A stretch of DNA of 64,000 nt from Candidatus Omnitrophota bacterium (GTDB lineage Bacteria; Omnitrophota; Omnitrophia; Omnitrophales; Aquincolibacteriaceae): positions 4,622 to 68,621 of the forward strand of contig JAKLFP010000009.1 in assembly GCA_022711115.1 (NCBI GenBank), in the 5' to 3' direction. Below the pieces are notes generated by a model. It saw only the letters and a list, made by a program, of their open reading frames with translations, was not told the DNA's origin and ran no database searches. The translations under genes were made by a program, and so were the position numbers. Of this stretch, positions 1 through 61,804 are shown one piece after another (positions within the stretch are counted from its first letter, which is position 1; the number at the start of each line of letters is the position of its first letter).

Positions 1-3000
1 CGGCATCGGATTCCGCAAGGGCTCCGAAGAGGTACGGCACCGTGGCGAGAAAAGTCATGGGCCGGTGATAGATCGGCTTGGCATAGATCAGCCCGTCCGT
101 CAAAGGATCGGAAGTTCGCTTGTGATTGGCGGAAATTTCCTGAAACCCTTTTTCCGCCATGGCCAGATACTTGGGGTCGCGGGTCACAAGATAGGCATAG
201 GCATAACCGTGAATGGCTTCCGGCGCGCCGTTCAAATAATTCAGCATGCGGCTCAGCATTTCAAAAACTTCAGGCTCCTGGGTCAATGCATGATACGCTA
301 TAAAGGCGCCCGTGTCATAACCGGTCATATAGAGCGGTGCCTTGGGACCGGACCAGGTTTTGAGCATGGGATTATAATTTTCCTGGAAACTGCCGTCCGC
401 GTTCTGCCCTTTCAGAAAGATTTCGATCAATTTATCCGCGGCTTTTTTGTACCGCTCATCCCCTGTTGTTTGATAGAGAAGCACATCGCCCCACAAGGCG
501 TTGGCCATGGCGCGCTGCGGCGCGATATTGGGGACATACGGGTACCCGACATACGTGAAAGGCTCCGTCAGAAAAAATTCTCCGACTTCATTCGCGACAT
601 CCCGCGCGCGTTCATCCCCGGTGATAAAGTGGTATAGCAAAAGCCCGACCACGCTCGTGTGGCTTGACTCATCGGTCCGCCCGCCCCAGTGGTTCCCGTT
701 GTGCCGGTGCATGGCGCCGACCTGGGAATATTTCGGGTGCATGGCCTTGAGCCGCTTGTCGTTTGTGATCGTGTCGTAGTGGATGGTGTCCACATCCATG
801 ATGTGCCGCGCCAGATTTTCCCCGAACTTGAAATATTTATAGAACCCGCTGCGCAAGAATTGAAGGAGCGCGCCGGTATGCGTCCCCACGCCTTCGCAGT
901 TATACCATCCCCACCGCCCGACCGGATACCAGCCCGGCTGAGAATATTTTTTTTCGTCATCCTGGTCGCGCCACCAGGTCAGGGTATCGCCGAAATCCAG
1001 CATGCCGTACCACTGAAAATTTTGCGGCTGGCGATCGGCCCAGTCAAAAAGCTTGTCCAGGATTTTCTCCGCGGTGGCGTTGGCCTTGGTCACGGGATAA
1101 AGACGGCCCGCCGCACCCGTGGCGTCGATCCAGTAAGGGTTCACGCGGATCTGAAGCGGTTCCATAAAAGATTGCGCGAGCGGCCGGGCTTTGGCCTTGT
1201 CCGCGTCATAGGGATGAAAATAAAAAATAAGTTCGTGCGTCTTCCCCACGCCGAACGCGCTGCCCCGGCCAAAAGCATCCGGCCCCTTGGCCTCGGCCGT
1301 GGTCGCCAAGCTTAACTCTCCGGCCTCTTCCGGCCACAGATCGATCTGGAGCGCGTTGTCCTCCGGCCGGTATTTGAACGCCTTAGGATAGTTCTCGCGA
1401 AAATTCCGAAGGGCGACCGTCACGCCGCGCGTCATGTCGGAAATATCAAACCAGCCTTCCAGCAACTTTTCGACCGGCGTGTTCCGGTTCCCGGTATGGA
1501 CCGTGGCGGAGAGATAATCCCGCTGGTAAATGATCATCTCGGAAGTGGGAATGCCCCTGTCAGGTTCCATCTCGACCCGGCCGATCGTCAATTGGACACT
1601 GCCAGGATTCTTGAACGTCAAGGGCATCCGGATCCCGAAATCCTCGATCGTCTCGTTCTCCGGAAGCCGCATCATCTGATACGGACCGAACTGTTTGTTT
1701 TCCGGATAACCGGTATAGATCAGCGTGTGCGCGATCTTCACGTCCGTCTTGCCGAAATAAAAATAATAACGCACGACGATCTGGCAGTACCGGTGGCCGT
1801 CCGCGGACTGGAACCAGCCGCTCGCTTTCAGGACCACCCGCTGCCTGCCTTTTTCCTCGACCTCCAGACGGTAAGTTTTCGTGTCGAGGTCCGCGCGGTA
1901 TTCCTTGCCGCGGAACCCGAGATAAAGACTGGCCCCGGACGTCAGCATTTCGTTTCCGCTGTAAATGCCGTCGCCGTTGGAATCCACGGACACTTTGTCA
2001 AAAAGGAAAAAGGATTTTTTGTCCAACACGGCCTTCAAGAGTCCGGTATTGACCGCGATCGTTTGAGCGTCCTCCTCGATCGTGATGCCGGGCCCGTAAT
2101 CGATGGCCTCGATCGTCGACCCGTAATCAAGAAAAAATCCGAGGTCTTCCCCCGGCTGAAACGTCGCGAGAAAATGAAGCGCCGCCCATTGGACGGACCC
2201 GTCCGGCCACCGGCTGAGCACACGCGGCTGGAACGGAAGGTCCTCTTCCGCGTTGTTGCGCAGACGCAGGTTCCGGAGGGAACGGAGTTCTCCCTGCGGG
2301 AACGGCACCCCGCCCTGCACTTCGCCTTTCCACGCAAATCCCGGCGTTTCATTTTTAACGACAAACGGGACCCTCACGATCGGCGTCTTGGTCGCGCGGT
2401 CTTCTCCCGACCACGCGGGCTTGAGTTTGGCGAATCCGTAATCGAGCATATTGACCGCATGTTTTGTCTTCGCCTGCTTCGCCAGTGCCGCGCGCGCATC
2501 GGGAGTGGGCGTCAACCGGATCTCATCCACGTCAATCGCCTGGTCCTGCCTCAAGCGGTTCATGGAAAAGGATATTTGATTCACCTGCTGGATATTGAGG
2601 GACGCGGCGATGGTTTTCACCGGAATGGAAACCGCCTGCCACCGGTCCGGCGGAAGCGTCACAGGCCGCTGGTAATGCTTGCCCCAAAGGTCCGAGACCA
2701 CCAGCATCACCGTCTGCGGGTCCTTCGCCTCATTAAAGAGATCCAGATCCAGCGACTCAAAGGACGTCCAGTCCGAGATCCCCTTGTGGGTCTTGATCAG
2801 GTCTTCAAGGACAATGCCGGAATAATCGCTCAGCCCCCGGAACGTGACCTTCGCGGAACGCAGTCCGTTGCTGGAGCGGTCCATATGGGGCATCATTTTC
2901 GCGTCCACCAGTTTCCACAGACGGATGTCCTGGTCATGCTCAAAATTCGACAGCACGTAACTGCCGTCCTTTTGCAACCCCGGAAACGGGACTCTTTCGC

Positions 3001-3148
3001 CCAGAAGAAAACGGAAAAACCCGCTCTGCCCGCGCGTCGCCACCGCGACCGCCACGATCACGATCACCGCCGCCACCAGAATGTTCTGGAGCCAGCGTTT
3101 CTTCTTTGATCCAGTTTCGAGTTCAAAGTTTTTAGTTTCGAGTTTCAT
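1..3148 (-). CDS. Large membrane-anchored extracytoplasmic protein, at least 1049 aa; C-terminus runs beyond the window start. Possibly a polysaccharide-modifying (lyase/hydrolase-like) enzyme; function uncertain.
   Basis: Minus-strand ATG at 3146-3148, preceded by a purine-rich stretch. The frame stays open to position 1, so the ORF has no stop in the window and is absent from the track. N-terminus MKLETKNFELETGSKKKRWLQNILVAAVIVIVAVAVA is a signal anchor. The + strand ORFs 65..637, 689..1315 and 1496..3109 all share the same codon register and are antisense shadows. C-terminal part reads as real protein (e.g. LYQTTGDERYKKAADKLIEIFLKGQNADGSF). Confidence 0.55.
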   Translation of the reverse strand, partial: MKLETKNFELETGSKKKRWLQNILVAAVIVIVAVAVATRGQSGFFRFLLGERVPFPGLQKDGSYVLSNFEHDQDIRLWKLVDAKMMPHMDRSSNGLRSAKVTFRGLSDYSGIVLEDLIKTHKGISDWTSFESLDLDLFNEAKDPQTVMLVVSDLWGKHYQRPVTLPPDRWQAVSIPVKTIAASLNIQQVNQISFSMNRLRQDQAIDVDEIRLTPTPDARAALAKQAKTKHAVNMLDYGFAKLKPAWSGEDRATKTPIVRVPFVVKNETPGFAWKGEVQGGVPFPQGELRSLRNLRLRNNAEEDLPFQPRVLSRWPDGSVQWAALHFLATFQPGEDLGFFLDYGSTIEAIDYGPGITIEEDAQTIAVNTGLLKAVLDKKSFFLFDKVSVDSNGDGIYSGNEMLTSGASLYLGFRGKEYRADLDTKTYRLEVEEKGRQRVVLKASGWFQSADGHRYCQIVVRYYFYFGKTDVKIAHTLIYTGYPENKQFGPYQMMRLPENETIEDFGIRMPLTFKNPGSVQLTIGRVEMEPDRGIPTSEMIIYQRDYLSATVHTGNRNTPVEKLLEGWFDISDMTRGVTVALRNFRENYPKAFKYRPEDNALQIDLWPEEAGELSLATTAEAKGPDAFGRGSAFGVGKTHELIFYFHPYDADKAKARPLAQSFMEPLQIRVNPYWIDATGAAGRLYPVTKANATAEKILDKLFDWADRQPQNFQWYGMLDFGDTLTWWRDQDDEKKYSQPGWYPVGRWGWYNCEGVGTHTGALLQFLRSGFYKYFKFGENLARHIMDVDTIHYDTITNDKRLKAMHPKYSQVGAMHRHNGNHWGGRTDESSHTSVVGLLLYHFITGDERARDVANEVGEFFLTEPFTYVGYPYVPNIAPQRAMANALWGDVLLYQTTGDERYKKAADKLIEIFLKGQNADGSFQENYNPMLKTWSGPKAPLYMTGYDTGAFIAYHALTQEPEVFEMLSRMLNYLNGAPEAIHGYAYAYLVTRDPKYLAMAEKGFQEISANHKRTSDPLTDGLIYAKPIYHRPMTFLATVPYLFGALAESDA

Positions 3149-3195
3149 GAAATACCACCCAAATTATGAATGAAGATGTAAGACGTAAGAGGTCA
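3122..3195. repeat. Direct repeat DR1a (74 bp), partner at 4485..4558; flanks DUF4143 ATPase copy 1
   Basis: 2 mismatches in 74 bp. Includes the start codon and first 8 codons of the large gene plus its 5' leader. Confidence 0.85.
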
Positions 3196-7283: not shown

Positions 7284-8459
7284 TTAATTCTTATTTCTTG
7301 CTTCCAAATAAATCTCCTCATGCCGCTTCACCATCTGCGCCACGCTGAACTCGCTGCGGACCCGGTCGAGCGCATTGGCGACGAGATTTTTTCTGAGCTC
7401 CGGGCTATCCGCGAATCGCGCCAACGCCTGCGCAAGGACTTCCGGATTTCCAACCGGGATCAAAAGACCGGTCTTTTCATGCTCCACACATTCGCTCACG
7501 CCGCCGACATCCGTGGCCGCCACCGGCACACTCGCCGCCATGGCCTCCAGCACGGTCATGGGAAAACCCTCGCGTTCCGAACAGAGCACAAACGCGTCCA
7601 TGGCCGCGTAAAGCCCCGGCGTATCATCGCAAAATCCCGCGAAAATAATCTCATGCCTGAGATCCCAACCCCGCGCTTTTTCCTCCAGGGCTCGCCGCTC
7701 CGGACCGTCGCCGATCACAAGACCGCCGACATTGCGTCCCGATTTCTTAAGCCGCGCGACCGCCTCGATAAAATCCTCCTGGCGTTTCTGCGGCACCAGC
7801 CTGCCCACGGTCCCGATCAGAAACCGGTTCCTGGGAACCCTGAACCGCTCCCGCACCTTGTCACGTTCCTTGTCCTGCTTAAAAAATTCCGTGTCAATCC
7901 CGTTATAAATCACCGTTGTCCTGGACCGGAGCGCCGGCACCTTGTCTAAATAAAACGCCTCTACTTTTTTACTCACGCAAATCACTTTGCGGCTGATGCC
8001 TGCCACGATCCGGTCTATCCAGAAATGATAAGGTCTTTTCCAAAGGTCCACATTGTGCTCGGTCATGACAATCGGCACGCCGGTGATCCATGCCATCAGG
8101 CGCCCCCACAGATTCGAGGTAAAAAGATGCGAGTGGATCACATCGATCTTTTCGCGGCGTATCAGCTCCCGAAGTCTGCCCAAAAACCCGAAATCCACGC
8201 GCCCTTTTTTCCCGAGCGCTTCGATTTTGATGCCGGCCGCTTCCGCGCGAAAGGCATAGCGCCCTTTTTCATTCAAACAGCAGATCACGGGCTCGAATTT
8301 CTGCCGGTCCAGCCCCGCCGCGAGATTCAGCACCACCTGCTCCGCCCCGCCCTGGTCCAGGGACCAAATTAAATACAAAATCTTGATTTTCTTTGAACCG
8401 TTTTCACACTTCATTGAAAGCCCCTTGAATATTTCCTTGTCAAAATCAAAACCAACCAC
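7284..8459 (-). CDS. Glycosyltransferase family 4 (GT-B, group 1)
   Basis: C-terminal EGFPMTVLEAMAASVPVAATDVGG...E motif (EX7E region). Start is probably the internal Met MKCENGSKKIKILYL, about 8414. Confidence 0.85.
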   Translation of the reverse strand: MVGFDFDKEIFKGLSMKCENGSKKIKILYLIWSLDQGGAEQVVLNLAAGLDRQKFEPVICCLNEKGRYAFRAEAAGIKIEALGKKGRVDFGFLGRLRELIRREKIDVIHSHLFTSNLWGRLMAWITGVPIVMTEHNVDLWKRPYHFWIDRIVAGISRKVICVSKKVEAFYLDKVPALRSRTTVIYNGIDTEFFKQDKERDKVRERFRVPRNRFLIGTVGRLVPQKRQEDFIEAVARLKKSGRNVGGLVIGDGPERRALEEKARGWDLRHEIIFAGFCDDTPGLYAAMDAFVLCSEREGFPMTVLEAMAASVPVAATDVGGVSECVEHEKTGLLIPVGNPEVLAQALARFADSPELRKNLVANALDRVRSEFSVAQMVKRHEEIYLEARNKN

Positions 8460-8735
8460 GCGGATTAAGGATTCAGAATTAAGGAATACGCAAAGCAGAA
8501 GTAGGAAATAAGATGTATGAAGTAAGATTTTTCATATTTCCTACCTCCGACCTCATACTTCAGTTTTCCCTTCTCCATCCCCCATTCCTCACTTGCGCCG
8601 ATGCGCAAGTACCACACCGTGGCGCCCAAGGTTAACGCCTACGGCGACGGCCTTCCCGCATTCGGCATTCCGAATTCTCCATTTCGCCTCTCACCGTTAC
8701 GCCCCACTCCCCACATGGTACTTGGTCCGTGCTAC

Positions 8736-9539
8736 TCAATACGCTCTTTCAATCGAACTGCGGACCAAATCCCGGTCAAAAAGCCTCCGCTCCTGCTCGT
8801 CTTCCAGAAAACGCTCCACATCCGCTTGGGCCGCTTCAAAATCAATGCCCTCGATCCTCTCGAGCAAAAACGCCTTAAACGTTTCTCGGCTCAAATCCAG
8901 GCGCTTTTTCTCCGTCTGTTCAACGGCGTTATTCAAGAAAGTGAAATTCGGGACCGTTTTCCGCCCGACATACCAGATAAAATCATACCAATCCCGTCCC
9001 TTGTTATAGCCGCGGAAAAAACAGGCGTGCAGTTTGCCCGCGAACATGGACGGCAGGTCGTAATGCGCGACCCCGAAAAGATGGATCTTGTTCAGGATCG
9101 TATGAAGGATCACGGCCCCTTCCGGCGGACGCGTGTCCATGTCCCATTTGATCATCAGCTTTTCATCCGGCATGGCCGCCACGCCGAGGTCCTTGAACAG
9201 TCCGGGGAATTTGATCATCAGACTCTTGACCGCGCCCTGCTCCCGGGACTTGCCCTCCGCCTCGATCCCGTAAGACCGGTAGGATTTCAATAACGCTTCC
9301 GCGGCATCCCCAAACACGAACTCTTTTCCCGGAATCAGAGAAAAATCCAGATCCTCCGAAAAACGGCGCAAGTCAAAAAGGATCCTCAGCGCCGTCCCGC
9401 CAAGAAAAGCGGCAAAATCAAACATGCCCTTGTCACTCATGATCTTCAGGCACAAGACCTGAAGATATTCCCGGGCCATGTTCTTTTTCTGCTCCGCGGT
9501 CATCCCTTTCTGAAATTGATTCTGGATCAGATCGATCAT
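8736..9539 (-). CDS. abiEii: AbiEii/AbiGii-family nucleotidyltransferase toxin (type IV TA), pair 1
   Basis: FLGGTALRILFDLRRFSEDLDFSL nucleotidyltransferase motif (GG[TS]A...SEDLDF). ATGA overlap with the upstream AbiEi gene at 9536-9539. Confidence 0.85.
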   Translation of the reverse strand: MIDLIQNQFQKGMTAEQKKNMAREYLQVLCLKIMSDKGMFDFAAFLGGTALRILFDLRRFSEDLDFSLIPGKEFVFGDAAEALLKSYRSYGIEAEGKSREQGAVKSLMIKFPGLFKDLGVAAMPDEKLMIKWDMDTRPPEGAVILHTILNKIHLFGVAHYDLPSMFAGKLHACFFRGYNKGRDWYDFIWYVGRKTVPNFTFLNNAVEQTEKKRLDLSRETFKAFLLERIEGIDFEAAQADVERFLEDEQERRLFDRDLVRSSIERAY

Positions 9540-10302: not shown

Positions 10303-12321
10303 TCACGGCCTTCCCCTTACCGCATGAAGCAGGGCATGGAGCTCGTCATAAGCGCCCGCGAGCTTCAGACGGAATCTCTCCAACGTGTCATCGCCCGCGA
10401 TCTCCGTGCGCCTTAGCAAAAACGGATTCTCCACAACCCTCGCATTTTTTTGTTGAACATAGCCATTCCAGCCCGGCCGGTTCGAACACGCGCCGAAATA
10501 GCCGGCCTCTTTCACGAAACGAACGGCTTCTTCATCATAAATACCGTACGGATAACAAAACAATGAAACCTCGCCTCCCAGTTCTTCCTCCAGCATTTTC
10601 TTGGATCCCAGAATTTCCCGCTTTTTGTCTTCCGCGCTCAAAGCATTTAATTTCGGATGGGTGATTGTGTGAGAACCAAACTCAATCCCCTGCCGGCGCA
10701 TTTCGTTGATCTGCGACAGTGTTAAATAATCCGGCTGGCCGACTCTCCCGGCGATGCAAAAAACCGCAGCCGTGAACCCGCATTCCTTCAGCACCGGAAA
10801 GGCGTGTTCGAAATGATCCTGCCAGCCGTCATCAAACGTGATGGCAACAGATCCGTCCGCAGCTTTGCCCGTAAGAATATCCGAAAGCGAGACGATCCGA
10901 TAATCCTGGTTTTTCAGATACTGCATCTGTTCGCGGAAACGGGCCGGCGGCACATTCAGGTAATCTGCCGCGCCATCCTGAACGCGGTGATAACACAGGA
11001 TCCGCGTACATCGCGGCGCCGCGCGGTTCAGGCTTTTGACCGCGTTCACGCACCGGGCAAGCAGTAAAGAGGCCTTGGCCTTCGCGGGGGGGATGGGCCC
11101 ATCTGTGGCAATCAGGCGTTTTCTGAATTCCCCGATATTTTTTTTCAGATCGAACTGTTCATGGACCACTTGATGCCCGGCCTCCGCCGTTCGCACCCGC
11201 AGCGCGTCATCGTGATAAAGACGCTCAAAGGCCTCGGCTAGTTTTTCGGGATTTTTATGCGGCACGAAAAATCCGGTCTCGCCTTCGACGATCAATTCCT
11301 CGACCGAACCGAAATGCGTGGTGATCACCGCCGTCCTGGCCGCGAGCGCTTCGATGATCACATTCGGAATCCCCCAATGCCATTCCGCCTGGGCCATTAA
11401 GACTGAGACATCCGCGCTTCTGCAATAAGGAATCACCTGGGTTTGCTTGAGCGCGCCGGTCATGGTGACATACGACTCGAGACCCAACGTCCCGATGAGC
11501 CCGCGTAACTCCGCCTCCATGGGTCCGCCACCGATGATCGTGCAGTGAAAATTTAGCCGCTTTTTTTTAAGGATCGCGAGCGCGTTCACAAGATGATCAA
11601 AACCTTTGTGTGGGTCCAGGGACCCCACCGAAAGGATCTGAAAAACGGGATTCCGTGTCTTGTCCCCGACATCGAAAAGAGAAAGGTCCAGGCCGTGATG
11701 ATTGATCAGGATCTTGTCCGGATCGACACCTTTTGCCACCTCCCGCAGATACGTCTTGTTGCTTACTGTGCATGTGCCGACAAAAGTCGCGGCCATGATC
11801 TTCTCGCGAAGGTGCGTGGTGTTCAGATAAATATCGTGCGCGTGTCCCGTCATGCTGAACGGGATCCCGGTGATCCGGGAAGCCGCCATCGCCACGGAAG
11901 CAGGATACGTGGCCCAGTAGCCGTGAAAATGCGTGGCCTTGTTTTGGAGCGCCCAATCCGCGAGATACAGGGCCTTGGGGAAGAAGATGAGGTTCTTCCA
12001 TAAAAAATTAAAACTTCCGAGATTCCCGCGCACGAGCTGAAAAAAAGCACCCAGCGTTTTGAGCGGCCGGGTGCAAAGCAATTTGATCCCGGCCCAAATC
12101 AGTCTCCAGGAAAAAAACGAAACATGAACTGTGCGGCTCAAAAGTTCCCGGGCCTGGTCATGGATCACTTTGTCTTTGGATTTTTTCAGGGAAAAGATCG
12201 CGATCGCTGTTTCTTTGGAGAGCGCGTACAATTCGCGCAAAATGAACGCCTCCGTGTAGCATGGAAATTGAGAAACGACAAAAACAATCCTCTTTGATGA
12301 AACCTCTTTACCAGTATTCAT
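10303..12321 (-). CDS. Fusion protein: GT4 glycosyltransferase (N-terminal) plus NodB-type polysaccharide deacetylase (C-terminal)
   Basis: GT4 EX7E-like region (NVIIEALAARTAVITTHFGSVEELIVEGETG). C-terminal TFDDGWQDHFEHAFPVLKECGFTAAVFCIAG and HTITHPKL match NodB motifs. Confidence 0.8.
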   Translation of the reverse strand: MNTGKEVSSKRIVFVVSQFPCYTEAFILRELYALSKETAIAIFSLKKSKDKVIHDQARELLSRTVHVSFFSWRLIWAGIKLLCTRPLKTLGAFFQLVRGNLGSFNFLWKNLIFFPKALYLADWALQNKATHFHGYWATYPASVAMAASRITGIPFSMTGHAHDIYLNTTHLREKIMAATFVGTCTVSNKTYLREVAKGVDPDKILINHHGLDLSLFDVGDKTRNPVFQILSVGSLDPHKGFDHLVNALAILKKKRLNFHCTIIGGGPMEAELRGLIGTLGLESYVTMTGALKQTQVIPYCRSADVSVLMAQAEWHWGIPNVIIEALAARTAVITTHFGSVEELIVEGETGFFVPHKNPEKLAEAFERLYHDDALRVRTAEAGHQVVHEQFDLKKNIGEFRKRLIATDGPIPPAKAKASLLLARCVNAVKSLNRAAPRCTRILCYHRVQDGAADYLNVPPARFREQMQYLKNQDYRIVSLSDILTGKAADGSVAITFDDGWQDHFEHAFPVLKECGFTAAVFCIAGRVGQPDYLTLSQINEMRRQGIEFGSHTITHPKLNALSAEDKKREILGSKKMLEEELGGEVSLFCYPYGIYDEEAVRFVKEAGYFGACSNRPGWNGYVQQKNARVVENPFLLRRTEIAGDDTLERFRLKLAGAYDELHALLHAVRGRP

Positions 12322-51926: not shown

Positions 51927-53111
51927 TCAGATCTCAGTGAATTTAAGTGCTGTCTTCGTCGCAGCATCCGTTCGGTGCGAATAATGACGCAGGCACACCT
52001 TTATGTCCCGATGTCCCGTAATCCCCATAACGTTTTTCGGGGCAACCCCCTGATCCAGCAATTCCGTAACCACACACTTCCTGAAGACCTTGGATGTGAT
52101 CTCACGTCCCAGGATCTTCAAGGATGCTTTCTTGAGATAATTATTAAAGCGGTCGTAGGACAGCCGTTTGCCTTTGGAATTAGGGAATAGGCAAGTCGCG
52201 TTCGGATTGTAATAGTGCAGCAGGACATCACGTAACCCCCTGTCGTCCTTGACCAGGGTGGAGTGCAGCTCCTCCTTGTTCTTTCGATCCCCCGCTTCGA
52301 CACGAATGGCGATCGAAACAGCATTTTCAAAAGCGATATTCTTGGTCTTGATGGATAAGATCTCACAAATCCGCCAACCGAGTCGCATCAGGAAATACAA
52401 CACCCCCCAATATACAGGCTTGTCCTTCTTAACAAATTCCAGCAATTTCCGCTTTTCATCCTTAGCAATCGGGGTATACGGGGTTTCTCGCATTCTGGGA
52501 ACCTTCAAATCAGACAATTCGGTCACAACGTCACTTCCGCAATAACCCGCTCGGTAGAACCGCTTCATATTGGATTTAAGCACTTGTAGCTCAGTCCGCC
52601 AGCCCTTTTCACGATTCAATTTAATCGTTACATACCGTTGGAAATCCAGCAGTGCACCTCTTGGCAGCTGACTGATTCTCTGCAAGTCGGGATACTCCTG
52701 TCGGAGAAAATCGATGAAGTGCTGCCACCCACTGAGCGATCGGTTGATGGTCTTGCGTCGGCAGGCGTCGGCAACCATCATCTGTCTAAGTTCATCCTTC
52801 AATGCCTCGAACGACTGGCTCTGTTTGGATCCGCTTTGAAAACTCTTTTCACTTCGGAGGGTTCTCAGCCATTCGTGACGCTGGAATTCCGCCTCTCGCT
52901 GGGATTTCTTCTCCAGATGAATGGTCTTGTATTTCCTATCGCCCGATGCATCATAGCCATCAAGCAGATAGACATGCAGGCCAATCTTGTCAGTGTTTCG
53001 GTACCGAACACCCTTAATTTGCTTCGCCAACTTCCCCTCCTGCAACAGCCATTCCCCGCTCTTTAACCCACCGCCTGAAGTCAGCGACTGGCGAAAGGAG
53101 TCGTTTCCCAA
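51927..53111 (-). CDS. Tyrosine-type site-specific recombinase/integrase
   Basis: C-terminal catalytic region ITGHRDIKVCLRHYSH (H-x-x-R ... Y). Domain size typical of phage integrases. Confidence 0.8.
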   Translation of the reverse strand: MGNDSFRQSLTSGGGLKSGEWLLQEGKLAKQIKGVRYRNTDKIGLHVYLLDGYDASGDRKYKTIHLEKKSQREAEFQRHEWLRTLRSEKSFQSGSKQSQSFEALKDELRQMMVADACRRKTINRSLSGWQHFIDFLRQEYPDLQRISQLPRGALLDFQRYVTIKLNREKGWRTELQVLKSNMKRFYRAGYCGSDVVTELSDLKVPRMRETPYTPIAKDEKRKLLEFVKKDKPVYWGVLYFLMRLGWRICEILSIKTKNIAFENAVSIAIRVEAGDRKNKEELHSTLVKDDRGLRDVLLHYYNPNATCLFPNSKGKRLSYDRFNNYLKKASLKILGREITSKVFRKCVVTELLDQGVAPKNVMGITGHRDIKVCLRHYSHRTDAATKTALKFTEI

Positions 53112-53227: not shown

Positions 53228-53800
53228 TCAATCTACCCCCTGTGTTGGACTTCGTTTCCCAAGTTTCCTGGATTCTTTATCACGCCCTGCATACCTCAAA
53301 CAATAACCTGAAGTTGCCCTCTTTCGCTTATCCCCAGCCCCGACAGGCCGCCCCAACCGCCGCCCACTTGCCCGTGCACGATCCAATCCTCCAAGCACCC
53401 GTGAACGGATGATTTCTCTTTCGAGTTCCGCAAATATGCCGAGGAGTTGCCAAAATGCTCGGTTCATCGGACTGTCGTTTGAGGTGTCGATGCCATCGGC
53501 GATTGAGACAAGACGAACGTTTCGATTCTTAAACTCTGCCAGCAAATTCAGAAGGTGCTTGAGTGATCGGCCAAGCCGATCCAACTTAGTTAAAAGAATC
53601 GTTCTGATCGATCCCAATCTGACTTCTTTTAAGAGTAGATCCAACTGCGGCCTAGAATCCCTCACCCCACTGATCCCGACATCAGAATAGATCTTGAATT
53701 TTGAGATCCCTTGATTCGAGCAGTAGTCTTTCAGCATCTTCACTTGGGCAGCAACGTCCTGTTTTACCGTGCTTACCCTACAATACAATGCAGTGCTCAC
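53228..53800 (-). CDS. Serine recombinase (resolvase/invertase family)
   Basis: N-terminal ALYCRVSTVKQD catalytic-serine motif. C-terminal HTH. Confidence 0.85.
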   Translation of the reverse strand: MSTALYCRVSTVKQDVAAQVKMLKDYCSNQGISKFKIYSDVGISGVRDSRPQLDLLLKEVRLGSIRTILLTKLDRLGRSLKHLLNLLAEFKNRNVRLVSIADGIDTSNDSPMNRAFWQLLGIFAELEREIIRSRVLGGLDRARASGRRLGRPVGAGDKRKRATSGYCLRYAGRDKESRKLGKRSPTQGVD

Positions 53801-54519: not shown

Positions 54520-55131
54520 CTATATCGCAGGATTCGTCGATTTCGAGGCATCGGGAACATGATCCTTCAACCTCTCTTTAACCGATTCCTTCCAGGCCAC
54601 GTCCGCAAGAATATGGGCAACCTGCTCCATCCGAGATTGCTTATCATCAAAGATCTGGCGAGCTACTGCCTTAGAAACCCTGATGGTGCAGTTGTAGGTG
54701 GTAGCCTTGGCTGGTTCTTGCTCAGGGGCAGGCTCCGCCCGCTTCTTTTTACCCTTCTTTTTGGGCGGAAGCGGAATCGTCATAGAGTGCATAAACGTAA
54801 CTTGAAGCTCATCATTAGGGATGCTTTCTAAGTATTTCTCGAACTGCTTAAGTGTTTCCTTGCTGCAGAAAAATCTCTTTCCACCAAAGATCGCATCCCA
54901 AAGCGACAGGTTTTCAGAGCCATCACCTGCGACTGTAAGTACTCCTTCGGTTCCATCTTCAAAAATGACCTTTTTGCCATCCTTGAGGACTTGAGTGGAA
55001 GCCTGGCGTGCGAGGTTCTCATTCTTCTCCAGCTCAACGCATTCGACACACTTCGCCAGAGTCTCTTTTGGATCATTCAGGGGTTCGATCTCCCCCATCG
55101 TTTTGTCACATCTTCTGCAAACGATTTTCAC
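54520..55131 (-). CDS. Hypothetical protein with N-terminal CxxC...CxxC zinc ribbon and a Lys-rich linker
   Basis: MKIVCRRCDKTMGE...KCVECVE. KKKGKKKR stretch. Confidence 0.4.
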   Translation of the reverse strand: MKIVCRRCDKTMGEIEPLNDPKETLAKCVECVELEKNENLARQASTQVLKDGKKVIFEDGTEGVLTVAGDGSENLSLWDAIFGGKRFFCSKETLKQFEKYLESIPNDELQVTFMHSMTIPLPPKKKGKKKRAEPAPEQEPAKATTYNCTIRVSKAVARQIFDDKQSRMEQVAHILADVAWKESVKERLKDHVPDASKSTNPAI

Positions 55132-55308
55132 GGCTCCATCATCCTTAAAATGTTTCCTTTATCTTAACGAATCGATCAAGAGAGCTCTACCAAATAATCA
55201 TTTGATTATTTGGTTTCATAGATCACCGCTCCCATCGAAGGGGTTTTGGACAATAAATTAGGGGGAGGTTTATTTGGTACGCCTTCCATGGCTGGGTTAT
55301 AATCCCGC

Positions 55309-55554: not shown

Positions 55555-55731
55555 TTATTCTGCCTTCTGTCTTCCTACCACGTTGTACTTCTTATCTAGC
55601 TTGATCAACAACTCGAATAAATTCGCCGTGTTCGTGGCGATTTCCCTGGCATCCTCCATGGTCAACGGCTCCTTGGAATACGGTTGCCAAACCTTGATCG
55701 TCTTCTCCAAGAACTCGTCGGAATAAGTCAT
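55555..55731 (-). CDS. Small ORF, 58 aa (MTYSDEFLEKTIKVWQPYSKEPLTMEDAREIATNTANLFELLIKLDKKYNVVGRQKAE); not in the supplied track because it is under 60 aa
   Basis: ATGA start/stop overlap with the upstream gene 55728..56096. Clean protein-like composition. Confidence 0.35.
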   Translation of the reverse strand: MTYSDEFLEKTIKVWQPYSKEPLTMEDAREIATNTANLFELLIKLDKKYNVVGRQKAE

Positions 55732-56096
55732 GACAACGCTGCCAGGAGCTGCCGTGCAGCCCGCTCATTTCGGATTGCCTTGTTCATTCCATACGGATCT
55801 GATTTGAGGTGAAGCCTGAGAAACCTACGAGACTTCTTCGGATCACGAGATGCGTAGTACCTGCCAAGCTTAAAGAGTTCGTCGGTGTTTGGTAACGGGA
55901 GTGGGATTCGCAACCTTTGGTACTCAGCTACCAGGTGCTCCAATTCCTTCGCAGCTGGCCCAGTCTTCCCCCGTCGTTCGAGGTGCCGAGCAACCTGCTG
56001 TGTAAGCCAAAAAGGGCGTTTTAAGCGACGGTATAAAGCCAGGGCCTTCCCGTATTGCTTCCGTTGCCATAACTGATCAAATACCTCAACCTTCAT
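55728..56096 (-). CDS. Hypothetical protein, 122 aa
   Basis: Member of an overlapping five-gene minus-strand operon. Confidence 0.45.
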   Translation of the reverse strand: MKVEVFDQLWQRKQYGKALALYRRLKRPFWLTQQVARHLERRGKTGPAAKELEHLVAEYQRLRIPLPLPNTDELFKLGRYYASRDPKKSRRFLRLHLKSDPYGMNKAIRNERAARQLLAALS

Positions 56097-56655
56097 GCGT
56101 ACCCATTCCTAAAGGCCGTATCTTCGCCGTCTCAGGCCCTGGCTTGCCCGAACGAAGCTCCTCAAGAACAGCGGTAGCAACCTTGATTCTTCCACTTTCT
56201 TCTTCGCCCGACGCAACCTTGAAATAGTGTTCAAAGTAATCCACCGCTTCAGAATCTTTCCCATCTCGAACAGAATTGTAGCCAAGCCAGTACCAACTCG
56301 GTGCGAAGTTTGGATTAGCCTCCGTCGATTTCTTGAAGTATCCGTTACCTTCCTCCGAGCCCATATTGATCAAGGCGAGGTCATACCAGGCCACGTATCG
56401 TTTCGGATCAAGCTCAACCGCCCGCTTCAAATGAACAGTTGCCCGCTCTGCCTGATTGTCCGACATCAGGAGTGCATGGCCGATCGCTTCCTCGATCTCC
56501 GCCTCACCCCTACCCTGGCCACTTAGATCTTCGTACAGCTGCTGCTCGATCCTGACCCAATCAATGTCATTAGGCGTATCTGCGGAATAACCAGCAATCG
56601 TCAAAGATAGGAAACAAATAATCGCCAAACCAGCATTCTTCAAACTGCAACTCAT
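56086..56655 (-). CDS. Secreted TPR-repeat protein
   Basis: Signal peptide MSCSLKNAGLAIICFLSLTIAGYSA. TPR-like repeats (AVELDPKRYVAWYDLALI..., ANPNFAPSWYWLGY...). Confidence 0.6.
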   Translation of the reverse strand: MSCSLKNAGLAIICFLSLTIAGYSADTPNDIDWVRIEQQLYEDLSGQGRGEAEIEEAIGHALLMSDNQAERATVHLKRAVELDPKRYVAWYDLALINMGSEEGNGYFKKSTEANPNFAPSWYWLGYNSVRDGKDSEAVDYFEHYFKVASGEEESGRIKVATAVLEELRSGKPGPETAKIRPLGMGTHEG

Positions 56656-57098
56656 TATGGAATTTGAGCCACCCTAAATCGAATGGTCTTGTGAGTTGTA
56701 TTATTGAAGAGAACTCGAATACCATAAGTGTCAAATTTCTCGAATTTAATGTTCTCGAAATTTAACACTGCCAGAAATCCCTCAGGCCATCCCTTTGGGG
56801 TTAATCGATTCTTTCCTACATGAAGAGGCCCTCCTGCAGCAACCACCTCGTGACCATCGCCATCCAAGATGATCACTCGCAGATCATGATCTCTGTCAAC
56901 TTCCGCAGCATCAAATGACAATTTAATGACCACCGACAAACTCTTATGAATCACGGGTAGTTGTTTCGCAAAGATTGTGTCGAAAGCACCACCCAAGACA
57001 TAAAGTTTCCCTCCAACCGCCTCCGCTCTATCTGCTAATAGACAAAAGTCAACTTCCATTCTAATCACCTCCGTCGTAATTCTTGCTTTCAGTTCCAA
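56655..57098 (-). CDS. Hypothetical protein, 147 aa
   Basis: Overlaps both neighbours. No recognisable family. Confidence 0.45.
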   Translation of the reverse strand: MELKARITTEVIRMEVDFCLLADRAEAVGGKLYVLGGAFDTIFAKQLPVIHKSLSVVIKLSFDAAEVDRDHDLRVIILDGDGHEVVAAGGPLHVGKNRLTPKGWPEGFLAVLNFENIKFEKFDTYGIRVLFNNTTHKTIRFRVAQIP

Positions 57099-57381
57099 TA
57101 GAACTGCTACCCGTTTGAATAATGACTATCTTGATTTCTCTTTGCACACCTGGCTCTAACTGAACAACCTGTGTTTCTTCTCTTAACTTCAACTCACGGT
57201 GTTCGGATTCGAGTTGCTGCTTCAACGATTCGTTCGCCTTGATTTCCGAACCGTGAATCATCGAATTAAGTTTCCACCCGATAAACCCGACAAGCAGAAG
57301 ACAACCATAGAATGTGGGCTGAATACAAAGAACTTTGAGCTGCTCAAAATTGTCTTCCAAAAATTTCATTAGATCATTCAT
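57061..57381 (-). CDS. Small single-pass membrane / coiled-coil protein, 106 aa
   Basis: One hydrophobic segment (CIQPTFYGCLLLVGFIGW) followed by a charged coiled-coil-like region. Confidence 0.4.
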   Translation of the reverse strand: MNDLMKFLEDNFEQLKVLCIQPTFYGCLLLVGFIGWKLNSMIHGSEIKANESLKQQLESEHRELKLREETQVVQLEPGVQREIKIVIIQTGSSSIGTESKNYDGGD

Positions 57382-57532
57382 ACTTCAAAACTCCAAACTT
57401 TCTATACGCATCAAGGGCGGCATCTTTGACAGGCTGCGGAACGATCGGGAAGGTGCTGAGGATGTGGGCGAACTCCTCCTCCGTGAGATCGTACAAATGA
57501 GCAACCATGCCGTCCAGTCTCATGACACGTAC

Positions 57533-60301
57533 TCAACGCACAACATCAAATAGATTCTTCGGATCATCGAGGACTTTGAATTCCCACGTCCCGAAACGAC
57601 CATCCACATTGACGGCATTGATCCATTCCTTGGTGGCCTGCCACTTCGCCTTGTCCTGCTCTGTGGTTTGCCCCTTTACTTCAAGTATCAGATGTCTGTT
57701 GCTTTCAAATCTGATGATGTAGTCAGGATAATAGGTGTGAGTCTGTCCCTGCCACAGATAAAAGATCTCGAAGCCAAGATGGTCGTTCTTCACCCATGAT
57801 ACGAGCCCAGGAATCCGATTCCGCTCGAACTCAAGACCGACCTTCTCCCAACCGCTGTCAATCACGATGTGACTCAACTGGCTCTTCTTTACGGGTTGCG
57901 TCGGCTTGCTCGTGTACCAGGTCATGGCAGTGGCAGTACTCCGCTTAGGTCTCACAGGATCCAAGATCAGTGTCGGGGCTTCCTTGCTGGAGCTGCGGAT
58001 GAAATTACCGATGTGGTTAATGATCTTTTGAGCATTGATTGCAATAACGATATTCCGCAACTTCTCAGCTCCCATATACAGTGGGATCTTGATATCGAGT
58101 TTTGGAGATGCCAGGAACTCATCGAAAATCTGCATCAGCTGGCTGATGTGACTGCCTGGATCTCCCTCCCAATTCTTTCCAAACTGCTCATGGAGTCGAA
58201 CAGCTGCCTGAAGTTTGATGCCCTGCAACCGATGTTCTTCCGCCAGCTTCGCCAGATCAATCTCACTGATCATGTCGTAGCGTGGTTTATTATCAATCGT
58301 TGGAGCCACTTCGACGACGGTAGGAGCATCTTCAGGAGACAAGGTCAGTTTTTCCATGCTGTTCCAGTCAAGATCGAGGAAATAATTTAATTTGTAATCG
58401 ACCCTGAGGACGTGGGGCCAGTCGATCTCCAACGCACCACGCTCCTGGATAGGAGCAATTTTCGTCTTCGGTTTCTCTTCTTTTGGCTTTCCTTCCTTTT
58501 GTTCCGCAGGCAAAAAAGTGAACGGTACACCGAAAACAGTTACATATTCAGGCTCATACAAACCCGTCTCCTCGTTCACGTCGTATGAAATCCGTCGTAG
58601 TCCTCGACCAATGACTTGTTCGCATAGTAATTGACTCGTGAATGCACGGAGACCGAGGATATGCGTCACCGTACGTGCGTCCCACCCTTCTGACATCATG
58701 TTGACTCCAATGACGCACTGAACTAATTCGCCAGCTTTCCCTTTTTTCCCGACCGTGTTGAATTTCTCTCGTTGGTCTAAAACTAGATCCTTTTTCGACC
58801 TGTCGAGTTTCTCTTCCTCTTCAGCTTCGATTTTATCCAACGCATCCTGATCGATTCGGATGAGACGTTGTCTGTCGCCCAACTCTTCGACCGATATGAA
58901 GCCATTGAGCAACGAATACTCGACCCTTGCTGCAGTCTCGATCCGATTACAGATCATGATCATGACAGGAGGCGTTTCCCTGGGGGGACTCTGCTTCTCC
59001 CAAAGCTCCTTCTCTTTCAACCAGTCACCGCCTAGAATTGTCATGGCATTTCGCACGAGATCAGGCAGACCTTCGTTCGGCTCAGCACGACGGTTCAGAT
59101 CCTCTCGAACTTCTGGATAAATGTGGAAGAGTTTGGTCTTTAAGTCCGCACCCATGTTTGAGTCATCACGCACAGCAACCTTTGGCGTTTTCACGAGACC
59201 GCTTTCAATGGCATCATTCAGACCGAAATCACTCACGATCCATGGGAAGAGCTGCTCGCCTTGGATATTCTTTCCAGTAGGTTTGAACGGTGTAGCCGTA
59301 AGATCGTAAGTCTTCAATACACCCCTACCGTTATGGATGCGGTCGATCCCGCTGATCCAGATAGTAGCCTTTTCTTCTTCCTCCTTATCCTCTTCGTCGC
59401 CTGAGGGTCTGTGACAATGATGTGCTTCGTCATTGATAACCAGCACGTTGCTGGCGTTGCCAAAATCAGGAAGAATTCTGCGGAAGAAAGCCTCGTTACT
59501 TTCGGGCCCTTTCTTCACAACCTTGGGGCCATAGTTCTCATTGATGGGTGCCAGTGAGTGCCAGTTGGTCACGATGATTTTGGCCTGAAGAAGTTCCTGC
59601 CACATGGAAGAATCTACGAGGTTGAACTGCTGGTAGAAGTTTTCAGCATTCTCAGGCTTTAGAACCTGAAGCCTGTCACGAACAGTAATACCTGGAGCAA
59701 CCACAAGGATATTTTTCGAGAACCGTGGATCTTTGGAATTTGCAATCTTATTAAGAGCCTGCCACGAAATTAACATGGCCATAACCACGGTCTTGCCCGT
59801 ACCCGTCGCCAGTTTGAGACACTGCCGTTCCCACCCGCTTCCATCAGCGGGGATTTCAATACCTTGTTTTTCGGCAGGACTCGCTTCAGTCAACCAAATC
59901 GCCGTTTCAACCGCTTCAAGCTGACACCAAAAGAGCTTGGATTCCCGCTGACTATTATCAGTCCAGAACTGGAGCAATTTCCGTGTTACGCCCGTAACAT
60001 TCGGATAACCATTCTCTTTCCACGCCTTGACCCTGGGCCTGATCTTATTGACCAGTTCGATTTCCTGAAACTCCCCTGGATCATCGAAGTTCCTCGCTGT
60101 CCTTACCGTCGCTCGCCAATAACCTGATTCCCGCCGACCAGCATGACGTTCAAAAGACTGCGTTTCCCTGATGTAGTGCCAGTGCTCTTTCGGCTCCTCG
60201 TAGGGGCTGCAGATAATCAGCTGATCGATCCCTTTTTGGCTCATCGTGTTACCATTTCCCCTCTGTGGGCAAGTAAGGAAGTCGTAACCCTTTATAAACA
60301 A
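57533..60301 (-). CDS. res: Type III restriction enzyme Res subunit (SF2 helicase plus endonuclease)
   Basis: Walker A ATGTGKTVVMAMLI. DEAH box LVINDEAHHC. About 900 aa. Downstream of the mod gene. True start probably the internal Met (MSQKGIDQL) about 60244. Confidence 0.85.
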   Translation of the reverse strand: MFIKGYDFLTCPQRGNGNTMSQKGIDQLIICSPYEEPKEHWHYIRETQSFERHAGRRESGYWRATVRTARNFDDPGEFQEIELVNKIRPRVKAWKENGYPNVTGVTRKLLQFWTDNSQRESKLFWCQLEAVETAIWLTEASPAEKQGIEIPADGSGWERQCLKLATGTGKTVVMAMLISWQALNKIANSKDPRFSKNILVVAPGITVRDRLQVLKPENAENFYQQFNLVDSSMWQELLQAKIIVTNWHSLAPINENYGPKVVKKGPESNEAFFRRILPDFGNASNVLVINDEAHHCHRPSGDEEDKEEEEKATIWISGIDRIHNGRGVLKTYDLTATPFKPTGKNIQGEQLFPWIVSDFGLNDAIESGLVKTPKVAVRDDSNMGADLKTKLFHIYPEVREDLNRRAEPNEGLPDLVRNAMTILGGDWLKEKELWEKQSPPRETPPVMIMICNRIETAARVEYSLLNGFISVEELGDRQRLIRIDQDALDKIEAEEEEKLDRSKKDLVLDQREKFNTVGKKGKAGELVQCVIGVNMMSEGWDARTVTHILGLRAFTSQLLCEQVIGRGLRRISYDVNEETGLYEPEYVTVFGVPFTFLPAEQKEGKPKEEKPKTKIAPIQERGALEIDWPHVLRVDYKLNYFLDLDWNSMEKLTLSPEDAPTVVEVAPTIDNKPRYDMISEIDLAKLAEEHRLQGIKLQAAVRLHEQFGKNWEGDPGSHISQLMQIFDEFLASPKLDIKIPLYMGAEKLRNIVIAINAQKIINHIGNFIRSSSKEAPTLILDPVRPKRSTATAMTWYTSKPTQPVKKSQLSHIVIDSGWEKVGLEFERNRIPGLVSWVKNDHLGFEIFYLWQGQTHTYYPDYIIRFESNRHLILEVKGQTTEQDKAKWQATKEWINAVNVDGRFGTWEFKVLDDPKNLFDVVR

Positions 60302-60343: not shown

Positions 60344-61804
60344 TCATTGCTTCTTCACCTCTTGTGCATCTGGTAACTTGTATTTCGTCCCCTTCACATA
60401 TCCTGACGGAGGGACAATCTGAATAAGTAATCCGTGCTTAACCCAATTCTTCAGCATCTTCGCCATCTTGTCCCGTTGAACAACTCCCGTAATCCTCCGA
60501 GCCTCCTCATTCGTGACATATTTATTGTCTTGAAGATAGACACTCAATTTCTCCCATTCGGAAATCCGATGTTCGTTCAAAAGAACCACTTTCACGGAAT
60601 CTTGATAGAGCGGATAAGTTAAGAAGATCGGCGGATACAACTGGCGATCAGACATCTCATGCCGCATTGCACGAACGCCTTCGCTCTGATCTAAATTAGG
60701 CGGAGACGGAAATTCCCTCAAATGCTTTACAATCAAATCATTCCGATACCCTTCAGCCCGAACCCATCCAATGTTCGTCCGAGTAATGTTAAATGGGAAC
60801 AATCCAGGGCTCTCCACTTCAACACGGTCTTCGTAAATCTTCACTTCGATATCCCGCTTCATGTGATAATCACGGTGAATGATGGCATTGGTAATCGCTT
60901 CTTTAACCGCCCGCTCAGGAATCTGATAGACAGTCTTGAAACCCGATGGGATCCTGATCCCTGCCTGCAACAGCGTCAGCACATATTCATGGGCATCCCG
61001 AATTTGTTTAATCAATGGCCCCTGGATAGTTTTTGGAACGCTGATGAGATTGGGAGTTTCCGCAATGGTCTCGATAGTGCCCGTGTATTGGAAAACCCTG
61101 ACAGCACACTTCGCCTCGGTCAAATCATTCGGATATTCAGCAAACAAAAGGACTGCTGCCAGCGTTGGCAAAAGCGTTCCTTCATCATTCTTTCGGGCAA
61201 GGCCAGTCTTTTCAAGCACCGTCTCAATCGGTGCCCCGTTAATACGTCGAGCTTGCTTCCATTCGTCAAAGACAGGCGTCCTCAACAAATCGAATTCAAC
61301 CTTCACGAGCCCCTTATCCGCCTTCTCAAATCCTTTCGCATAAGCGAATTTGACAACTTCGTGGGCAGTCATCATCCGATTGCCCTTTTCACCTCGCACG
61401 AAAACATGGTTGTTTGTCGACCTAAAACTATCCATGGCTTTGGGAACAAAAATAAGTCCGATCCTTTTTTTGGCCTCAGGGACATCCAAGATGGTCGGAG
61501 GCCACAGCGGAGCTAATGGAGGGACTATCTTCTGGATTTCATGACCGAGGGAGTCGAAGACTTGAAGGTTCTCATCGATGCCGTAAATGCGATCCAATCC
61601 CTTAAGCTTCGTCTTTTCAGGATCATCTACGCCAAGAACGATGACACCACCATCCGTATTCGCCATTGCGACAACGGTCTCGACCGTCTTGCCGACAACT
61701 TTCTCGTCCCCAAGACGCTTAAATTCGACTGTCTGTGTCTCAGCAGGGATATCTAGGATGCTATTCAAAAATTCGCTTGGGCCATCTTTTGCCATGAATT
61801 TCAC
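60344..61804 (-). CDS. AlbA_2 (Schlafen-like) DNA-binding domain plus HATPase_c_4 ATP-binding protein (COG2865-like), embedded between mod and res
   Basis: N-terminal ETQTVEFKRLGD...VETVVAMANTDGGVIVLGVDD is an AlbA_2 signature. C-terminal KEAITNAIIHRDY is a HATPase_c_4 signature. 4-nt overlap with mod. Confidence 0.8.
   Translation of the reverse strand: MKFMAKDGPSEFLNSILDIPAETQTVEFKRLGDEKVVGKTVETVVAMANTDGGVIVLGVDDPEKTKLKGLDRIYGIDENLQVFDSLGHEIQKIVPPLAPLWPPTILDVPEAKKRIGLIFVPKAMDSFRSTNNHVFVRGEKGNRMMTAHEVVKFAYAKGFEKADKGLVKVEFDLLRTPVFDEWKQARRINGAPIETVLEKTGLARKNDEGTLLPTLAAVLLFAEYPNDLTEAKCAVRVFQYTGTIETIAETPNLISVPKTIQGPLIKQIRDAHEYVLTLLQAGIRIPSGFKTVYQIPERAVKEAITNAIIHRDYHMKRDIEVKIYEDRVEVESPGLFPFNITRTNIGWVRAEGYRNDLIVKHLREFPSPPNLDQSEGVRAMRHEMSDRQLYPPIFLTYPLYQDSVKVVLLNEHRISEWEKLSVYLQDNKYVTNEEARRITGVVQRDKMAKMLKNWVKHGLLIQIVPPSGYVKGTKYKLPDAQEVKKQ

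Follow-up and report, generated by a model that had tools for sequence, protein, structure and literature searches.

Five small genes behind a Type III restriction-modification system of an Omnitrophota bacterium are probably mosaic cargo of a mobile element and include a recurrent pair of TPR and TPR-like genes

The described systems closest to the locus analysed here are the accessory genes that trail restriction-modification (R-M) operons, the protein scaffolds built on three tetratricopeptide repeats (TPRs), and the RRNPP/arbitrium modules. The locus consists of five small minus-strand genes, named A to E, in a 64,000-nucleotide (nt) stretch of the metagenome-assembled Candidatus Omnitrophota contig JAKLFP010000009.1; this stretch is referred to as the window, all coordinates are positions within it unless another locus is named, and the homologous loci compared with it carry L-numbers. 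Like accessory genes that trail R-M operons, the five are packed behind a restriction gene (res here, hsdR elsewhere), are variable in content, and lie near recombinases and a toxin-antitoxin pair. The 3-TPR scaffolds, such as consensus CTPR3, the TPR domain of YbgF/CpoB, BamD, and the class II chaperones IpgC and SycD of the Type III secretion system (T3SS), are resembled by the product of gene C in sequence models and consensus structures, and, more weakly, by the product of gene D in a seven-helix TPR-like model with its best fold matches among them. RRNPP/arbitrium modules offer an analogy of arrangement, as a gene for a putatively cytoplasmic TPR protein adjoins a gene for a putatively exported product beside a recombination module.

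The five genes do not constitute one system. The block splits into a 49-amino-acid (aa) open reading frame (ORF) upstream of A (s49), A-B, C-D, and E with a convergent ORF (P73), which are independently exchanged cassettes. An earlier interpretation of the window from its letters and ORFs (the sequence-only reading) had proposed one conserved five-gene unit and had named singly scattered homologs as the observation that would speak against it, which is what was found for most of the block; only C and D co-occur elsewhere, together with E once. The full A-E block is confined to near-identical contigs (DAOOUA010000008.1 of GCA_035390585.1, JGI 3300010429, and two Logan runs). At the 78 loci with a homolog of B, tblastn detected no homolog of C, D, or E, and a homolog of A at one locus. 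The slot between the restriction gene and C-D is filled by unrelated genes in each context, and C-D are not tied to the Type III R-M system as extra subunits would be, since Type I hsdR precedes them elsewhere. The locus shows that close packing behind restriction genes is not in itself proof of a system, and at least three unrelated cassettes are joined here.

The interpretation that we favour, with somewhat better than even confidence, is that these are five real genes, likely the tail of an R-M transcript, and that they represent mosaic cargo cassettes of an integrative mobile element in which C-D serve as a scaffold or accessory pair. The absence of a recognisable catalytic motif from all five proteins, as the sequence-only reading had reported, agrees with the lack of any match to known defence families in Pfam, PADLOC, NCBIfam, and PHROG. 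Since C and D have no catalytic features, they are most likely protein-binding scaffolds or adaptors of the mobile element. D would act in the cytoplasm and C in the periplasm, and our preferred guess is that D attaches to nucleic acid or to a partner encoded by the element and has an accessory or maintenance function for elements bearing a serine recombinase. The nearby R-M systems would then be interchangeable cargo rather than functional partners, and the small genes would be expressed together with the R-M genes as cargo or accessory content.

A to E are protein-coding genes, as indicated by divergence biased towards third codon positions and by confident structure models (predicted local distance difference test, pLDDT, of 94.3 for D and 93.4 for B). 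When the window is compared with L093, codon positions 1/2/3 show 28/24/68 differences in C, 30/16/51 in D, and 12/10/18 in E, a pattern that implies purifying selection on C and D and is compatible with coding for E. All five ORFs of the sequence-only reading are present on the minus strand; that reading had overlooked s49, the convergent P73, and the TPR-like nature of D. Its description of the five as uncharacterised is slightly off, in that B belongs to a Pfam family and D is TPR-like.

Genes C (56086-56655, 189 aa) and D (55728-56096, 122 aa) form a conserved pair in divergent contexts, and their overlap points to translational coupling. The pair recurs in L088-L092, L093, and L094, where C is 54-86 % and D 64-73 % identical, with an 11-nt overlap each time; the same overlap is found in every context where C and D adjoin. 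The gene order is hsdR C-terminus, a 67-aa ORF, C, D, E, and convergent P73 in L093, and C, D, and an HTH_3 gene in L094. In L088, Type I hsdM/S/R genes are followed by genes for a 261-aa protein and a DpnI-like 147-aa protein, then C, D, and an HTH_3 gene, and further on by a resolvase and a large serine recombinase. These contexts lack homologs of A and B. The one exception to the pairing is L095, where the gene that comes after the C homolog is unrelated to D. Metagenome scans for further C-D loci returned nothing with the D alignment and one short contig with the C alignment, and scans of viral contigs with D, C, and a distant D-family member gave no match. Small proteins encoded at 621-824 of L093 and 11320-11601 of L088 share the motif FTHIExDExxPxGTxExxEExVAExLFxMWL; this gene precedes C in L093 and the large serine recombinase in L088, and is another shuffled small gene of mobile elements.

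C is a TPR protein by the Pfam models TPR_17 (34.6 bits, cut-off 24.4) and TPR_14 (26.9 bits, cut-off 23.5), and a profile of its homologs matches consensus TPR structures at 1e-10 to 1e-43. It comprises about three canonical repeats and a conserved Gly/Pro-rich C-terminal tail. The N-terminus carries a signal-like segment at residues 3-21 (Kyte-Doolittle 1.67), and in an alignment with the homologs from L088, L093, and L094, which are 57-86 % identical, this hydrophobic segment is kept while its sequence varies. The earlier description of C as a secreted TPR protein is borne out by the signal-like N-terminus and the TPR matches together. C is accordingly predicted to be exported by the Sec route to the periplasm and D to be cytoplasmic.

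D is clearly a real gene, given its family of 33 clusters and its confident model. It is nevertheless omitted by the NCBI and JGI gene calls (in L001 and L002, at 10964-11332 of these loci, which corresponds to 55728-56096 of the window), whereas the Logan calls include it. The family was delineated by an exhaustive HMMER search of 1.84 billion representatives, in which 33 clusters matched at E<=1e-3, and is absent from Pfam. Its signature is RPFWL...ILPLPxGPxELFKLG. The protein is extremely basic (isoelectric point, pI, of 10.8, net charge +17, 28 K+R against 11 D+E). By itself D falls below the TPR cut-off (TPR_14, 19.3 against 23.5 bits), and 10 of 28 family members match TPR models. The structure model is a bundle of seven helices, for which TPR proteins supply all of the best fold matches, at a template modelling (TM) score of ~0.5 and E >=0.07. 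Neither B nor D had a tblastn match in the phage and plasmid collections, and searches of their profiles against PDB sequences returned nothing significant. Two longer family matches were also noted: in P0039 (253 aa), the match is joined to the N-terminal portion of a YgiQ-like radical SAM protein, either by fusion or by a wrong gene call, and in P0033 (413 aa), the D domain is C-terminal in a longer CxxC/TPR-like protein.

More distant members of the D family, 37-40 % identical to D of the window, occur in L096, L098, L099, L104, and L107. In L096, the gene for an exported 254-aa protein overlaps the D gene by 4 nt, a large serine recombinase lies convergently 19 nt downstream, and a ParB gene lies in the vicinity together with an HNH+HIT gene that is ThsC/PtuB-like according to PADLOC. 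L104 is an element with a Toprim/MCM primase-helicase, in which D is followed by a gene for a membrane-anchored SIMPL protein, with a recombinase 1.4 kb downstream. L107 is a RepB_primase/AAA_25 element with the order exported 260-aa protein, D, a resolvase that overlaps D by 26 nt, and Type I R-M. A TPR gene lies downstream of D in L098, and a DUF4238 gene (DUF4238-Pers in PADLOC) upstream of it in L099. MerR/HTH_17, ParB, and replication or primase genes are found near members of the family. L096 (3983-4408) and L107 (5693-6016) also encode homologous small proteins (38 % identity) with the motif ‘DGxYDVDGDx’ and a repeat-like C-terminal part; in both loci, this small protein, the exported partner, and the D-family gene make up a recurring trio beside a serine recombinase.

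The setting common to these loci is a serine recombinase. An all-against-all comparison of every ORF of at least 50 aa in the five long contexts (the window, L088, L096, L104, and L107) identified D and a serine recombinase as the only families present in all five, at a recombinase-D distance of 0-2.3 kb. This association is best read as shared residence on mobile elements that bear serine recombinases, and a specific partnership, although possible, is unsupported. Co-evolution of D with the resolvase was also considered as a candidate and was downgraded, the divergences being uncorrelated.

Gene B is a member of Pfam DUF6941 (PF22091). It matches at E 4e-24 and 85.8 bits (cut-off 27) over profile positions 2-125 of 125, that is, full-length and above the gathering score, and carries the invariant GKLY-x-GG motif common to it and more than 300 homologs; precomputed annotations assign PF22091 to all of the homologs. 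The gene spans 56655-57059 (134 aa) or, from a TTG, 56655-57098 (147 aa). The true start is most likely the ATG at 57059, 1 nt past the stop of gene A, because the Pfam match leaves out the first 17 residues of the 147-aa version, all homologs begin with MEVDF, GGAGG precedes the ATG, and gene callers give 134 aa. Of the overlaps of 38, 1, 11, and 4 nt in the sequence-only reading, the last three are correct, and the 38 nt between A and B is a probable artefact of choosing the longest ORF. The AlphaFold model of B, built on an alignment of database hits, is a nine-strand beta-sandwich (pLDDT 93.4), and the all-beta protein is predicted to be cytoplasmic. Its Foldseek matches in PDB are weak and include PDE6delta/UNC119 (TM ~0.4), the C-terminal domain of Wzt (0.46-0.57), and a Leptospira protein of unknown function, while the best viral fold match is an uncharacterised Anoxybacillus phage protein (TM 0.80).

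DUF6941 is a widespread, mostly chromosomal family whose genes usually occur alone. A scan of genome collections yielded the 78 loci with B homologs, many of which are housekeeping neighbourhoods with pgsA-like phosphatidyltransferase, nuo, or F420 oxidoreductase genes. In Acidimicrobiia/Actinomycetota loci (L014-L037, at ~8001-9000), the DUF6941 gene overlaps a downstream CDP-alcohol phosphatidyltransferase (pgsA-like) gene by 4 nt in a conserved arrangement, with a VOC/glyoxalase-like or lipoprotein gene upstream. Homologs of Dehalococcoidia adjoin F420-type oxidoreductases, a homolog 52 % identical to B sits between nuo genes behind a BrnT/BrnA-like pair, and methyltransferase fragments lie beside B homologs at 3 of the 78 loci. 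B differs from most of its family, as the members found here are mostly single chromosomal genes off mobile elements and without TPR neighbours. The pgsA neighbour, together with the weak fold likeness to the lipid-binding PDE6delta/UNC119 sandwiches, hints that the family is lipid-related. A lipid-binding role for B itself was set aside and kept merely as a lead, the TM score being only ~0.4 with a root-mean-square deviation of 7.6. Literature searches for DUF6941 and PF22091 gave no papers.

Upstream of B, gene A (57061-57381, 106 aa) encodes an acidic, single-pass membrane protein with a transmembrane segment at residues 17-35 (Kyte-Doolittle 1.84), in agreement with the one segment assigned to it earlier, followed by a coiled-coil-like segment. 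The sole homolog found (40 % identity, E 2e-10) is in a Planctomycetia metagenome-assembled genome (L005/L010), directly upstream of a B homolog that is 57 % identical. This homolog (701-1051 of L005) is broken by an in-frame TAG at 767. A-B as a conserved pair was considered and downgraded, given this single, stop-interrupted instance and the BrnT/BrnA-like pair upstream of the next-closest B (52 %). L005 also carries a second, divergent DUF6941-like ORF at 2745-3185, 1.3 kb downstream and past an SDH_protease (PF01972) gene.

Between res and gene A lies s49 (57374-57523, minus strand, 49 aa), whose closest counterparts, at 66-74 % identity, are the extreme C-termini encoded by large DNA methyltransferase or AlbA_2-type genes on cyanobacterial plasmids; the match corresponds to the final ~47 residues of a 1194-aa methyltransferase (tail motif AHLYDLTEEEFAHILSTFP...). 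Most simply, s49 would be a detached remnant of the C-terminus of a large DNA methyltransferase, a sign that the R-M locus may once have been rearranged at its 3' end.

Gene E (55555-55731, 58 aa) was absent from the ORF track supplied for the sequence-only reading, which nonetheless proposed it as a gene. It is real: a homolog with 76 % identity occurs in L093, where the ATGA junction is conserved, and the gene is called in L001-L004. In L088 and L094, E is replaced by the HTH_3 gene, which has its own promoter-like site. P73 (55309-55530, plus strand), a basic 73-aa ORF convergent to E, has a counterpart with 42 % identity in the same convergent position relative to E in L093, and no Pfam match. 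E and P73 are an optional addition to C-D and may form a small module of their own. Searches with A, E, s49, and P73 gave nothing in Pfam, NCBIfam, or PHROGs.

The flanks of the block include the Type III R-M system and recombinase genes between which the sequence-only reading had placed it. Upstream on the minus strand, the first gene is the Type III mod (N6_N4_Mtase), which is truncated by the window end at 64000 and encodes 837 aa in L001; an AlbA_2/Schlafen gene with an HATPase_c_4 domain (60344-61804) and the Type III res gene (57533-60301) follow on the same strand. The AlbA_2/Schlafen gene matches PADLOC models of a pAgo-associated protein (E 2e-26) and of SIR2-PNTD over the shared domain. 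On the other side, beyond P73, are genes for a 203-aa CxxC protein (F203; start at 55131, minus strand) and a 182-aa helix-turn-helix (HTH)-like protein (G182), then a small serine recombinase (resolvase) of the 190-aa class (53228-53800, minus strand, ~1.9 kb downstream of D), a tyrosine integrase (51927-53111), and a DUF433/PIN toxin-antitoxin pair. PADLOC-DB v2 gave no match at E<=1 for A, B, C, D, E, s49, F203, or G182. The divergent intergenic region between the 203-aa gene and P73 contains a perfect 12+2+12 bp palindrome (55189-55214, ACCAAATAATCA nn TGATTATTTGGT), which is operator-like, and a sigma-70-like match lies at 55274-55303 on the plus strand immediately before P73.

From mod to E, every junction is an overlap or a gap of <=42 nt. 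The mod gene and the AlbA_2/Schlafen gene overlap by 4 nt, the latter is separated from res by 42 nt and res from s49 by 9 nt, and overlaps of 8 nt (s49/A), 1 nt (B/C), 11 nt (C/D), and 4 nt (D/E, ATGA) follow. A consensus scan found no strong internal promoter or terminator match between mod and E. Judging from this spacing, mod, the AlbA_2/Schlafen gene, res, s49, and A-E probably form a single transcript with the small genes as its promoter-distal tail. Tight junctions (an overlap or a gap of <=10 nt) occur at 16 of the 48 same-strand ORF pairs of the window; as such junctions are frequent in the genome, the packing backs co-transcription yet is unexceptional.

Several points weigh against the interpretation of the five genes as cargo in the tail of the R-M transcript and of C-D as a scaffold or accessory pair of serine-recombinase-bearing elements. 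Co-transcription is deduced from spacing, and a weak promoter-like site within res (57755-57728, 9/12) could start a separate transcript. The recombinases are of differing classes, from a 190-aa resolvase to a 567-aa large serine recombinase, and in divergence they show no correlation with D (Spearman -0.30, p 0.40); between the window and L088, for example, D is 66 % identical and the resolvase 33 %. Moreover, 6 of the 9 D-family contexts have R-M or other defence-type neighbours, so that a defence-related role of C-D is possible. The comparison covers about nine D-family contexts, several of them on short contigs.

These points leave room for more specific roles of C and D, none of which appears likely. 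One such role is that C-D by themselves, or joined by E or the HTH_3 gene, act as a two-component accessory of restriction or defence, for example as an envelope-linked sensor or as an exclusion module in which periplasmic C would act on incoming phage or DNA and D would couple C to the cytoplasm. Genes for small envelope proteins close to the ends of elements are classic examples of exclusion genes, C-D lie downstream of a restriction subunit in all three contexts with upstream sequence (the window, L088, and L093), and D has exported or membrane-anchored neighbours in four lineages (C itself, the 254-aa protein of L096, the 260-aa protein of L107, and the SIMPL protein of L104). However, the R-M types vary; in L107 the resolvase stands between D and the R-M genes, and in L104 R-M genes are absent. 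The exported partners share no homology with one another, and their presence in 4 of 6 lineages is not clearly above chance. C also occurs without D in L095, and no transmembrane link between the two is encoded, so we regard this role as unlikely. A broader proposal, to which we give a similarly low weight, is that D belongs, as a previously unrecognised factor, to the backbone of one class of mobile elements that occur in Omnitrophota and in uncultured lineages close to them, either as an accessory or directionality factor of the serine recombinase or as the cytoplasmic half of an envelope-spanning module that, with C, would decide element behaviour or exclude DNA. It is slightly less probable still that D serves the serine recombinase as a dedicated accessory, directionality, or regulatory factor, or is an RRNPP/arbitrium-like peptide-sensing regulator of excision with C as the exported signal source. 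This would account for the exclusive sharing of D and a serine recombinase by the five long contexts and for the overlap of D with the resolvase in L107, and the pI of D is compatible with nucleic-acid binding; a cytoplasmic TPR protein beside an exported protein with a conserved C-terminal tail, and an HTH_3 regulator in place of E, would also fit. Yet the recombinases differ in size class and do not diverge in step with D. In the window and in L088, moreover, D and the resolvase have two to four unrelated genes between them. An HTH is absent from D, C with its 189 aa is a folded TPR protein rather than a short pro-peptide, and no peptide importer is nearby.

The view of the sequence-only reading, that the five genes are one new anti-phage defence or cargo system, possibly acting with the Type III R-M system, draws on their tight packing straight behind res and on the mobile-element or defence-island setting. 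Also in its favour, D-family genes lie beside Type I or III R-M, HNH+HIT (ThsC/PtuB-like), or DUF4238-Pers genes in the six contexts mentioned above. The five do not co-occur outside near-identical copies, the B family resides mostly in housekeeping neighbourhoods, the slot before C-D is variable, and neither a PADLOC match nor an enzymatic or effector domain was found, which makes a single system improbable. Least probable of all, and by our estimate very unlikely, is that recombination downstream of res left the small ORFs behind as hitch-hikers that are decaying or have no function. The resemblance of s49 to a methyltransferase remnant, the in-frame stop of the sole A homolog, and the skipping of D by the NCBI and JGI calls would be consistent with decay, but several divergent contexts preserve C, D, and E intact, with an excess of third-position change, the B and D folds are very confident, and start contexts and junctions are conserved.

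Compared with the known systems, the locus is ordinary mosaic mobile-element cargo of unknown function. The five genes differ from accessory genes described behind R-M operons in that they match no described defence or anti-defence family, and C-D have no described counterpart. With respect to 3-TPR scaffolds, the fold matches of D are weak, D has its own signature and extreme basicity, and no T3SS, Tol-Pal, or BAM genes are nearby. RRNPP modules require a TPR receptor with an output domain and an exported pro-peptide of less than ~70 aa, and D and C do not have these properties: D has 122 aa, about three repeats, and no DNA-binding or effector domain, C is a folded TPR protein of 189 aa, and the host belongs to the diderm Omnitrophota rather than the Firmicutes. 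The analysis also corrects the annotation of the start of B, of D where it is missing from the NCBI and JGI calls, and of the 49-aa ORF with a methyltransferase tail. What is modestly new relative to these systems is the D family, which has no name as yet, together with the repeated occurrence of an exported TPR protein as its partner near serine recombinases and defence cargo. The D family marks serine-recombinase-bearing elements of poorly studied, uncultured bacteria, often beside R-M cargo, and should D turn out to assist a recombinase or to act in exclusion at the envelope, the known biology of such elements would gain a component.

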